Shown one piece after another: positions 44,566-45,939 of a DNA stretch of 50,906 nucleotides (within the stretch, counting starts at the first letter, position 1; each line of letters opens with the position of its first letter). The notes beneath the pieces were generated by a model. It did no database searches and was not told the origin of the DNA. It saw only the letters and a list, made by a program, of their open reading frames with translations. The position numbers and the translations under genes were made by a program. Source of the DNA: Anaerolineae bacterium (GTDB lineage: Bacteria > Chloroflexota > Anaerolineae > UBA1429); NCBI GenBank assembly GCA_049975585.1, contig JBNGEB010000001.1:7992-58897 (forward strand), in the 5' to 3' direction.

Positions 44566-45939
44566 ATGGCATCCGATCGAGACCAGAGCGCACCACGTTA
44601 TCGCTTTGCCACACGCGAGCTGCTGATCATGGCAGGATTGGCCGGGCTCAGTGGCGTAGCCAGCACGGCCATCAACGCCCTGGGCGACGCGGTCCAGGCC
44701 ATCCTAGGGTTCGCGGGCACGACCCAATGGGCCGCAGGGCTCCATGTGACGCTGTTGCTGCTCGCGCCGGTTCTGGTTGGCAAGCCAGGCGCCGCTACCA
44801 TCACCGGCATCCTCAAGGGCGCCGTAGAGCTATTGAGTGGCAACACCCACGGCATGCTGGTCGTACTGGTCGACATCGCTGGGGGACTGCTCATCGACGT
44901 GACATTCCTGGCTTTCCGACGCCGCGATCGTTGGTGGTCTCTGATGGTCGCTGGCGCCATCGCCGCGGCCAGCAACGTGTTTGTCTTCCAACTCTTTGCC
45001 AGCGCGCCGGAGGACGTACTCCGCTACATCTGGGCTATCGCGGGCCTGGCCGCCGTATCGGGCGCCACTCTGGGAGGGCTGCTGGCGTACGCCTTGCTCA
45101 AGGCGCTCCGCCAGGCTGGGCTCAGCATGCCCAGCGCCGAGCGCCGCCGCCTCGCTTGGCCACAAGGGCTGGTATTAGCCGTTGCCACGGTAGCCCTGGT
45201 TGGGGGAGGGGTTGCGCTGGCACAGGCATACGCAGGTGAGGCCACGGTTGAGGTCACCGGGGCCTGCGCCGAGCCCTATGCGTACGGCCCCGAACTTGGC
45301 CTACCGATAGTGAACTTACAGCTTGAGATACAGGGCATGAAACGCAATGTCACAGGAACTCCGCTACGCGAGATCGTGGCGCACGCAACGCCAGCCCCTG
45401 GCGTCAACGCCGTGATCGTCACCGCCACCGACGGCTATGCTTTCTTTGTCACGATGGACGAGATCGCCTCCAACGACGAGCTGCTGCTAGCCCACCGTGG
45501 CGATGGCAAGAACATCAGCTATGACATTGTCGGTGCCGAAAGCCCCAAGGCTTGGGTGCGCAACGTGATCGAGCTTCGCCTGCAGGCGCAGGCCTCCGTC
45601 AAGCTCACCGGCAAGCTGGATCAGGCGGAGCCGTTCCGGCCAGCGGATTGGTTGGGGGACATGGATAGCGCGCGCGTGGACGCGGGAGAGGGCCCCACCA
45701 AGTACCAGGGCGTACCAGCGCGAGCTGTCATCTCTGCCGCAGGGCCGCAGGCCGGAGCTACCACCCTTTGTGCCATAGGCCGCGACGGAACCGTTACAGA
45801 GTGGCCGCTGACAGAGGTACTCGCCGATGATGCCATCCGCATCTGGATCGTGAACGAGCCGGACGGCACGCGGTATGCCGTAGGGAGCGCCGACCAAGAG
45901 ATCGTCGCCACAGACGTGGTCGAGCTGGCCGTCGAGTAA
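44566..45939 (+). CDS. ECF S component (YkoE-like) fused through a 7th TM helix to two tandem extracytoplasmic SUOX-fold (molybdopterin-binding-like) domains
   Basis: ATG 44566 follows GGAGGAA. The 6-TM core contains VGKPGAATITGILKGAVELLSGNTHG. A basic loop is followed by TM7 (LVLAVATVALVGGGVALAQAYA). Two repeats of about 115 aa follow, alignable to the lipoproteins at 48223-49436 (...ATDGYAFFV...WVRNVIELRL and ...KYQGVPARAVISAAG...VVELAVE). Confidence 0.7.
   Translation: MASDRDQSAPRYRFATRELLIMAGLAGLSGVASTAINALGDAVQAILGFAGTTQWAAGLHVTLLLLAPVLVGKPGAATITGILKGAVELLSGNTHGMLVVLVDIAGGLLIDVTFLAFRRRDRWWSLMVAGAIAAASNVFVFQLFASAPEDVLRYIWAIAGLAAVSGATLGGLLAYALLKALRQAGLSMPSAERRRLAWPQGLVLAVATVALVGGGVALAQAYAGEATVEVTGACAEPYAYGPELGLPIVNLQLEIQGMKRNVTGTPLREIVAHATPAPGVNAVIVTATDGYAFFVTMDEIASNDELLLAHRGDGKNISYDIVGAESPKAWVRNVIELRLQAQASVKLTGKLDQAEPFRPADWLGDMDSARVDAGEGPTKYQGVPARAVISAAGPQAGATTLCAIGRDGTVTEWPLTEVLADDAIRIWIVNEPDGTRYAVGSADQEIVATDVVELAVE

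Follow-up and report, generated by a model that had tools for sequence, protein, structure and literature searches.

The DNA considered here is a 50,906-nucleotide stretch from an Anaerolineae bacterium (assembly GCA_049975585.1, contig JBNGEB010000001.1, positions 7,992 to 58,897; hereafter the window), and its subject is a gene at positions 44566-45939 whose product is confirmed as a YkoE-type S component of an energy-coupling factor (ECF) transporter, extended by a seventh membrane helix and two degenerate repeats of the sulfite oxidase (SUOX) fold. The open reading frame (ORF) spans 44485..45939 on the plus strand and yields a 457-residue protein when read from the ATG at 44566, the credible start because the longer TTG start falls within a riboswitch aptamer at 44393-44512. 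The identical 457-residue protein is named at NCBI only generically, as an 'ECF transporter S component'. Riboswitches of the molybdenum cofactor/tungsten cofactor (Moco/Tuco) class precede both this gene and the neighboring lipoprotein genes, and the locus reads as follows.

44393..44512, plus strand: Moco/Tuco riboswitch aptamer (RF01055), P3 deleted; 63 bits, E 6.8e-13
44513..44565, plus strand: probable expression platform, a GC-rich hairpin with CUCCUUU, then a Shine-Dalgarno sequence, GGAGGA, about 8 nucleotides (nt) before the ATG
44566..45237, plus strand: ECF S-component domain, residues 1-224; six-helix YkoE-type core with an extra seventh helix
45157-45228, plus strand: seventh transmembrane helix (TM7), residues 198-221, from the AlphaFold2 model
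45238..45615, plus strand: predicted external repeat R1, residues 225-350; SUOX fold, with a PF00174 stretch and an hhalign match to the lipoproteins
45616..45939, plus strand: predicted external repeat R2, residues 351-457 plus stop; a more degenerate SUOX-fold copy, from hhalign
45943..47391, plus strand: fused EcfA-EcfA' double ATPase; two PF00005 domains, TIGR04520 (ECF_ATPase_1) at 324.6 bits, above cut-off
47388..48173, plus strand: EcfT (CbiQ-family) coupling subunit; PF02361, 5.9e-25
48223..48732, minus strand: SUOX-fold lipoprotein 1; PF00174, 1.7e-16; lipobox LAGC
48960..49463, minus strand: SUOX-fold lipoprotein 2; PF00174, 2.2e-21; lipobox LTSC; Arg at the ligand position
49529..49668, minus strand: second Moco riboswitch aptamer (RF01055), P3 present; 70.7 bits, E 4e-15

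The genes are tightly packed. The double ATPase starts 4 nt past the stop of the S gene, its own stop overlaps the start of EcfT by 4 nt, and the lipoprotein genes converge on this ECF operon from the minus strand. The NCBI product for lipoprotein 2 is 158 residues long, starting 9 codons later.

The six-helix YkoE-like core had been proposed in a preliminary description made from the sequence, all of whose quoted peptides are present in the translation, and the proposal is borne out by both profile and structural comparison. In Pfam searches, the YkoE-type family PF09819 covers residues 18-134 at 61.4 bits (cut-off 25.2), and Oxidored_molyb (PF00174) is found in two stretches of the tail at 31.4 bits (cut-off 24). 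An AlphaFold2 model, built with an alignment of 56 family members as input (pLDDT 86.9, pTM 0.73), contains seven helices (16-47 through to 149-183 and 198-221) followed by two beta-rich domains at 228-349 and 359-456. In a Foldseek search of the PDB, this model aligns with YkoE (5EDL) over 177 columns with E 2.7e-6, a target TM-score of 0.75, a root-mean-square deviation of 2.8 Å and 25% identity. Neither Pfam nor Foldseek places the protein with the CbiM/NikM metal-type S components. The family alignment picks out a set of conserved polar residues in the predicted S-component pocket: Q54, W55, H60, K84, E88, H95, D111, S136, N137 and Q142.

S components are expected to keep both termini in the cytoplasm and to lack extracytoplasmic domains, and in this protein the core is instead followed by TM7 and a 230-residue tail. 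The positively charged loop and the hydrophobic helix pointed out in the preliminary description both appear in the model, and the hydrophobicity of TM7 is kept across the family. Among the 56 family members, the predicted cytoplasmic loops contain on average 8.6 Lys plus Arg residues, compared with 0.6 in the predicted external loops plus the 15 residues past TM7. This positive-inside bias, the lipoboxes on free paralogues of the repeats (58/63) and the fusion of the same repeats to the extracytoplasmic tungstate-binding protein TupA and to a protein with CxxCH haem c motifs together make an external position of the tail, as originally suggested, a well-supported prediction from sequence. In the window's clade only, TM7 ends in a signal-peptidase-site-like A-Q-A-Y-A|G (window 45190-45235, residues 209-223) and is preceded by E-R-R-R-L-A-W. 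Because neither motif is conserved in the family, cleavage at TM7 or targeting by the twin-arginine translocation (Tat) pathway is unlikely. Polytopic Moco proteins of actinobacteria are inserted by a dual Sec/Tat route, and a similar role for TM7 as a Tat signal was considered and rejected, as the twin arginine and AxA motif are not conserved in the family.

Homology of the two tail repeats to each other and to the nearby lipoproteins, as claimed in the preliminary description, holds up well in profile-profile comparison by hhalign: R1 matches R2 at 97.7% (E 1.8e-12) and the lipoproteins at 98.2% (E 5.7e-14), and R2 matches the lipoproteins at 94.3% (E 9.7e-8). The invariant residues of R1 (D289, G290, Y291, K328, A329, V331 and R332) form the DGY and K-A-W-V-R motifs, and R2 has a conserved motif of its own (P359, W362, M366 ... 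G376, K379, Q381, G382). The R1 profile also matches the molybdoenzymes SoxC and SorA, with KAWVR falling on their WVK motif, and Foldseek relates the S-protein model to SorA, SoxC, nitrate reductase and YedY (1e-5 to 7e-4). The pterin-binding protein PruR gives target TM-scores of 0.58-0.66 (7RKB, with neopterin, 7KOM, 7KOS, 7KOU and 7KP2), and the lipoprotein profile aligns with nearly the whole chain of PruR 7KOS (2.2e-7). By these comparisons, the PruR proteins are the best small structural analogues of the external domains. An invariant Tyr in DGY and a near-invariant C-terminal Trp are present.

The Cys that ligates molybdenum in SUOX molybdoenzymes has no conserved counterpart in the tail: in the family alignment, Cys exceeds 10% in a single column, residue 234, where it reaches 23%. 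Most lipoproteins have a conserved Lys, part of M-E-K-S-T-G-E-D-E, at the position of the molybdenum ligand Cys102 of YedY, and the hairpin that carries the ligand is full length relative to YedY rather than shortened. Lipoprotein 1 contains a conserved C-D-C, the first Cys of which lies 10 residues before a conserved Trp, a spacing like that of YedY Cys102, and this C-D-C is kept in the orthologues from related loci L001, L004, L006 and L047. The external domains measure about 110-140 residues and have no dimerization domain. Lipoprotein and S-protein alignments contain no conserved twin-arginine motif, either before TM7 or in the lipoprotein signal peptides. Folded, cofactor-loaded proteins require the Tat pathway for export, and the Sec pathway passes proteins that are unfolded and free of cofactor. 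With no conserved Tat motif, and with no conserved ligand Cys in the tail, the external SUOX-fold domains probably leave the cytoplasm unfolded and empty, so that they could acquire a ligand only outside the cell.

The small SUOX-like lipoproteins fall into two types in alignment A3 (e.g. L044 14180-14632 and L069 14562-15005). Type A carries M-E-K-S-T-G-E-D-E and P-A-N-R-W, and type B carries Y-T-G-K-D-G and a conserved C-x-D-C directly ahead of the final strands. Many operons have a single gene of each type or a gene for an A+B fusion of about 281 residues. A word-indexed search with the lipoproteins returned only Anaerolineae proteins, and one lipoprotein entry (P0121) bears the database name 'molybdopterin-dependent oxidoreductase'.

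Two Moco/Tuco riboswitches and a conserved set of partner genes, both overlooked in the preliminary description, are decisive for interpreting the locus. The two aptamers score above the RF01055 gathering score of 36 bits; the first lies 54 nt ahead of the S gene, the second ahead of the lipoprotein genes. For the first, folding predictions pair CUCCUUU with the 3' AAAGGAG strand of the aptamer when that strand is included and otherwise put it in a local hairpin, a plausible anti-Shine-Dalgarno layout that would fit a translational off-switch. P3 status, read from alignment to the Rfam model, differs between the two aptamers. Variants lacking P3 track tungsten-cofactor metabolism and variants containing it track Moco (Regulski et al. 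2008, PMC2408646).

The riboswitch accompanies the gene in most relatives. Rfam detects it in 9/9 related loci tested, and a covariance model made in this analysis finds 73 copies across related loci. Upstream sequence is available for 78 loci: the riboswitch is present at 64 of them, a gene for a PadR-family regulator takes its place at 11, and neither occurs at three. P3 is absent from 58 of the 65 riboswitches upstream of the S gene, the seven exceptions all belonging to one clade, and is present in all five riboswitches that precede minus-strand lipoprotein genes in relatives. Searched at E values up to 10, the region upstream of the S gene shows no TPP (thiamine pyrophosphate) or cobalamin riboswitch. 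The P3-bearing clade (L013, L014, L015, L025, L028 and L030) has a conserved small ORF of about 130 residues between riboswitch and S gene (252-716 at L013); its 'LPC...CQLG(L/C)F' motif occurs twice, and Pfam gives it no confident match. At L037, two tandem P3-less Moco-type aptamers (5327-5450 and 5550-5673, minus strand) lie upstream of a gene for a 913-residue Mop-type aldehyde oxidoreductase (2410-5151, minus strand).

A word-indexed database search identified at least 519 homologues of the S protein, those listed being about 455 residues long and mainly from Anaerolineae/Chloroflexota. Of 100 relatives found in a scan of GTDB species genomes, 80 were retrieved for comparison, and the fusion is full length in all 80, at 35-87% identity; all are Chloroflexota and almost all Anaerolineae. 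The occurrence of the same ORF in so many proteins and genomes identifies the fusion as genuine and excludes a frameshift or assembly error, a concern raised when the architecture was first noted.

Operon order was derived by clustering all ORFs of the related loci. The usual arrangement is riboswitch (or padR), S gene with two SUOX repeats, EcfAA', EcfT, cytochrome-like protein, phosphodiesterase and SUOX-like lipoproteins. EcfT lies downstream of the S gene in 55/58 relatives with enough sequence. A membrane-anchored protein of about 305 residues that combines two CxxCH motifs with two SUOX-like repeats is encoded at 48/50 loci, both CxxCH motifs being present in 43 of 51 members of this dihaem family. 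The phosphodiesterase, an NPP-family lipoprotein of about 380 residues with intact catalytic motifs (PF01663, 1.2e-18; L068 6503-7654 is an example), is present at 43/47 loci, and SUOX-like lipoproteins, either singly, as two genes or fused as a pair, at 42/45. The complete chromosomes OY776562.1 and OY771913.1 are among the metagenome-assembled genomes with this operon. In the window's clade, the lipoproteins are on the opposite strand under their own riboswitch. Tungstate ABC genes often accompany the operon. Behind the riboswitch of L034 and L052 come tupB and tupC, next a gene for TupA with two SUOX-like repeats fused to it, and last the S gene; at L037, L045 and L051, tupBCA comes after the lipoproteins. 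The TupA-SUOX fusions (L034 6174-7856, L052 6177-7865 and L071 14128-16056, all on the plus strand) have C-x-D-C in their C-terminal repeats, and those of L034 and L052 share a P3-less riboswitch with the S gene. A membrane CCG/4Fe-4S (HdrD-like) protein is inserted in seven operons.

An exhaustive HMMER search with the S domain alone yields only 186 cluster representatives. The closest are about 450 residues long, and a second tier of 340-390 residues consists of the S domain, TM7 and a single SUOX-like domain; one of these single-repeat variants comes from an Asgard archaeon. The partner genes of the main operon recur around these distant variants, as the gene contents of five loci show.

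L084: S and T; SUOX-like protein, phosphodiesterase, FmdE and FecCD nearby
L087: SUOX-like protein, S, AA', T, SUOX-like protein, PadR, Peripla_BP_2/FecCD/ABC
L088: haem c assembly gene, S, AA', T, SUOX-like protein, uncharacterized gene, phosphodiesterase, CCG protein
L089: three tandem S::SUOX paralogues and a ModA-like binding protein
L090: SUOX-like protein, Metallophos phosphoesterase, S, AA', T

At L090, the NPP-type phosphodiesterase is thus replaced by a non-homologous Metallophos phosphoesterase. The paralogues of L089 (7904-13117, plus strand) are 362, 352 and 340 residues long, the 352-residue one being a single-repeat fusion by sequence; this locus, from an organism of low GC content, also encodes a SUOX-like protein and EcfT. 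No Moco riboswitch was found at the distant single-repeat loci, at least one of which is archaeal.

Taken together, these observations give good support to the view that the window encodes a riboswitch-controlled ECF importer tied to molybdenum/tungsten cofactor supply, with SUOX-fold domains tethered to its outer side. The reading that we favor, with a probability of roughly 0.45, is that of a cofactor-repressed, dedicated (group I) ECF importer whose tethered domains capture a molybdopterin-type cofactor for salvage. The importer, composed of S, EcfAA' and EcfT, would be switched off once the molybdenum/tungsten cofactor pool is full. The seventh helix would place the two SUOX-fold domains on the outer face of the membrane as tethered capture domains, which may cooperate with the free lipoprotein paralogues and, in most relatives, with the exported phosphodiesterase and dihaem cytochrome. 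Uptake might begin with the binding, by empty SUOX-fold domains, of a molybdopterin-type cofactor (Mo- or W-molybdopterin or a dinucleotide form) shed by other cells. The nucleotide part would then be cut off by the phosphoesterase, and the ligand handed to the pocket of the S component for ATP-driven import through the ECF module.

A molybdopterin-type substrate is favored on several grounds. The S component belongs to an organic-vitamin family, known YkoE-family members carrying organic vitamins or their precursors. The external fold is a Moco/pterin-binding fold, probably exported empty; a phosphoesterase is a conserved partner; lipoprotein 1 retains the metal-ligand Cys; and separate oxyanion importers co-occur. 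More than any other observation, the swap of phosphoesterase families at L090 hints at extracellular processing of a phosphoester or nucleotide-linked substrate. Oxyanion importers found in the same operons or loci include TupBCA, FecCD/Peripla_BP_2 and a ModA-like binding protein, and their co-occurrence suggests that the ECF system carries something other than tungstate or molybdate.

A number of points weigh against cofactor salvage, and several of them speak for what we regard as the main rival, an ECF-type importer of tungstate or molybdate in which the SUOX-like domains (CxDC or CDC motifs occur in some) would trap the oxyanion, whether as such, thio-substituted or complexed, and hand it to the S component, by analogy with cobalt uptake by CbiMNQO under a B12 riboswitch. 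Free Moco is chemically labile. The window's clade has a reduced version of the operon with neither phosphodiesterase nor cytochrome. Any correspondence between the conserved Tyr and Trp that sandwich the pterin in PruR and the DGY and WVR residues of the repeats is hypothetical. The fusion of TupA, a tungstate-binding protein, to the same repeats means that these could serve oxyanion capture, and the predominance of P3-less, tungsten-linked riboswitches upstream of the S gene (58/65) agrees with such a cargo. All transporters linked to Moco riboswitches so far import molybdate or tungstate (PMC2408646), so that the metal is the precedented substrate. Genes for moaABCDE occur in at least some Anaerolineales, as single-cell genomes show (PMC4959059), and cofactor salvage would therefore not be essential. 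This rival is nonetheless the less likely of the two: the S component falls outside the metal type, an oxyanion importer would be redundant beside the dedicated oxyanion ABC importers of the same operons, and it offers no obvious role for the conserved exported phosphoesterase, non-orthologously replaced in one lineage. Nor is an empty SUOX fold known to bind free molybdate.

A different explanation would make the external SUOX-like proteins active Moco/Tuco redox enzymes, similar to MsrP or sulfite dehydrogenase, that receive electrons from the dihaem cytochrome and the HdrD-like protein. The riboswitch would then couple their expression to cofactor supply, and the ECF module would import the reaction product or an unrelated vitamin. 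Moco riboswitches do precede Moco-enzyme genes (the Mop-type aldehyde oxidoreductase of L037 is one), the dihaem partner and the CCG/4Fe-4S membrane protein of seven operons could supply an electron path, and lipoprotein 1 retains the ligand Cys. The reading is weakened by the missing ligand Cys and Tat signal, since the tail and most lipoproteins have no conserved Cys at that position, with Lys there instead, and a cofactor loaded in the cytoplasm could not leave with a protein that has no conserved Tat motif; the domains are also cut to about 110-140 residues, with no dimerization domain. We consider it improbable. Least probable is an ordinary YkoE transporter for the thiamine precursor hydroxymethylpyrimidine (HMP), with a structural or cell-envelope tail unrelated to the substrate. 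YkoE is the best structural match, and many family members carry the JGI name 'ABC-type thiamin/hydroxymethylpyrimidine transport system permease'. A thiamine-related role is contradicted by the riboswitch class, the locus having two Moco riboswitches and no TPP riboswitch; identity to YkoE is just 25%, and the conserved partners are all Mo/W- or SUOX-related.

Comparison with known systems further defines the proposed salvage importer. Like YkoE and other group I ECF transporters (5EDL; ykoEDC), it has a six-helix core of the PF09819 family, its own EcfA, EcfA' and EcfT in the operon and a cofactor riboswitch. The S protein differs from YkoE in its seventh helix and about 230 external residues, and the operon differs from ykoEDC in the class of its riboswitch and in its partners, which are SUOX-fold lipoproteins and, in relatives, the phosphodiesterase. 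A domain tethered to the outside of an S component is unexpected, because ECF transporters are defined by needing no binding protein. In the ABC importers GlnPQ and OpuA, binding domains are joined covalently to the membrane transporter, in some cases as a tandem pair, but these are type I importers that require binding proteins. CbiN and NikK/NikL are extra extracytoplasmic or membrane components that assist metal ECF S components and are specific for cobalt or nickel; unlike the domains described here, they are of unrelated folds and are not fused to the S component.

The PruR proteins (7KOU, 7KOS, 7RKB, 7KOM) share with the domains of the window a small, exported SUOX fold without Mo-ligand Cys or catalytic partner domains. 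PruR is a ligand binder, binding tetrahydromonapterin and signaling to DcpA in Proteobacteria (PMC11194511). The domains of the window are instead joined to a transporter whose gene follows a Moco riboswitch, and they belong to a family of Chloroflexota and archaea. The Cys-hairpin, truncated in PruR with a PW motif in its place, is full length in the lipoproteins. Among the neighboring genes, which encode ECF, Tup, cytochrome and NPP proteins, there is no diguanylate cyclase/phosphodiesterase of the DcpA type. With SUOX molybdoenzymes (YedY/MsrP 1XDQ, SorA 2BLF, SoxC 2XTS), the repeats share the Moco-domain fold and the W-x-G-V, DG and WV(K/R) motifs, and in SorAB and SoxCD the fold is likewise paired with a c-type cytochrome; the tail differs from these enzymes in its lack of ligand Cys, Tat signal and dimerization domain, its much smaller size and its tandem duplication. 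Known Moco-riboswitch regulons include modABC, tupABC, wtpABC and moaABCDE (Regulski et al. 2008, PMC2408646). The S gene resembles the uptake genes among them in being preceded by this riboswitch class, both forms of which, with and without P3, occur.

In the searchable literature, we found no S component described with an extracytoplasmic domain, and no ECF-type transporter placed in a Moco regulon or linked to tungstate. The suggestion that the architecture is undescribed thus stands as far as papers are concerned, but the proteins themselves are abundant in sequence databases under generic names. No molybdenum-cofactor transporter is known in any organism. With its two predicted outward-facing SUOX-fold domains and its Moco/Tuco riboswitch, the gene is a good candidate for what would be the first bacterial system known to scavenge the Mo/W cofactor, or its metal, from outside. 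Transfer of the cofactor between organisms has been demonstrated in nematodes (PMC7849362). More specifically, there is a substantial chance, although below even odds, that the locus encodes the first cellular uptake system for the Mo/W cofactor or molybdopterin; it would also be the first ECF transporter to use extracytoplasmic binding domains. The rule that ECF transporters lack extracytoplasmic binding proteins is challenged by a widespread lineage with tethered external domains, found in more than 80 Anaerolineae species and with single-repeat variants that reach archaea, and the accommodation of an extra helix and a 230-residue ectodomain becomes a question for the toppling mechanism. Moco transport becomes directly testable with a candidate that is linked to a riboswitch and has a defined set of genes, and the split between P3-less and P3-containing riboswitches, upstream of transporter and lipoprotein genes respectively, is a natural test of the proposed difference between Tuco and Moco sensing. 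Were the substrate tungstate or molybdate, the system would still be the first ECF-type oxyanion importer and provide a new function for the SUOX fold.

Twenty other large ORFs scanned in the window are housekeeping genes and include no Moco biosynthesis or further Mo/W transport genes. The window also encodes a second, general ECF module (33345-38638, plus strand) with two EcfA genes (33345-35067), EcfT (35046-35897) and a PF12822 S component (35911-36654); synteny with L001 suggests that type III pantothenate kinase and CoaBC come next. The module probably serves as a pantothenate ECF system with a link to CoA synthesis. A gene for a ChlI/BchI-like AAA+ protein (49789-50898, plus strand) diverges from the riboswitch-lipoprotein unit, its matches to TIGR02442 and TIGR02030 being both below cut-off. 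At the syntenic L001, the AAA+ gene is followed by one for a VWA protein; the two make a chelatase-like pair for which no large CobN/BchH subunit is seen. ATP synthase genes (11664-18246, plus strand) occur in an unusual order: a beta-like subunit comes first, a 197-residue ORF that matches no Pfam family second, and behind it the a subunit, a fused b/delta subunit and a long alpha subunit. We take this order to resemble N-ATPase operons. A RACo-type reductive activator of corrinoid proteins (3945-5831, minus strand; PF14574, PF17651 and Fer2) suggests, from its sequence, that the organism may carry out corrinoid-dependent methyl transfer.

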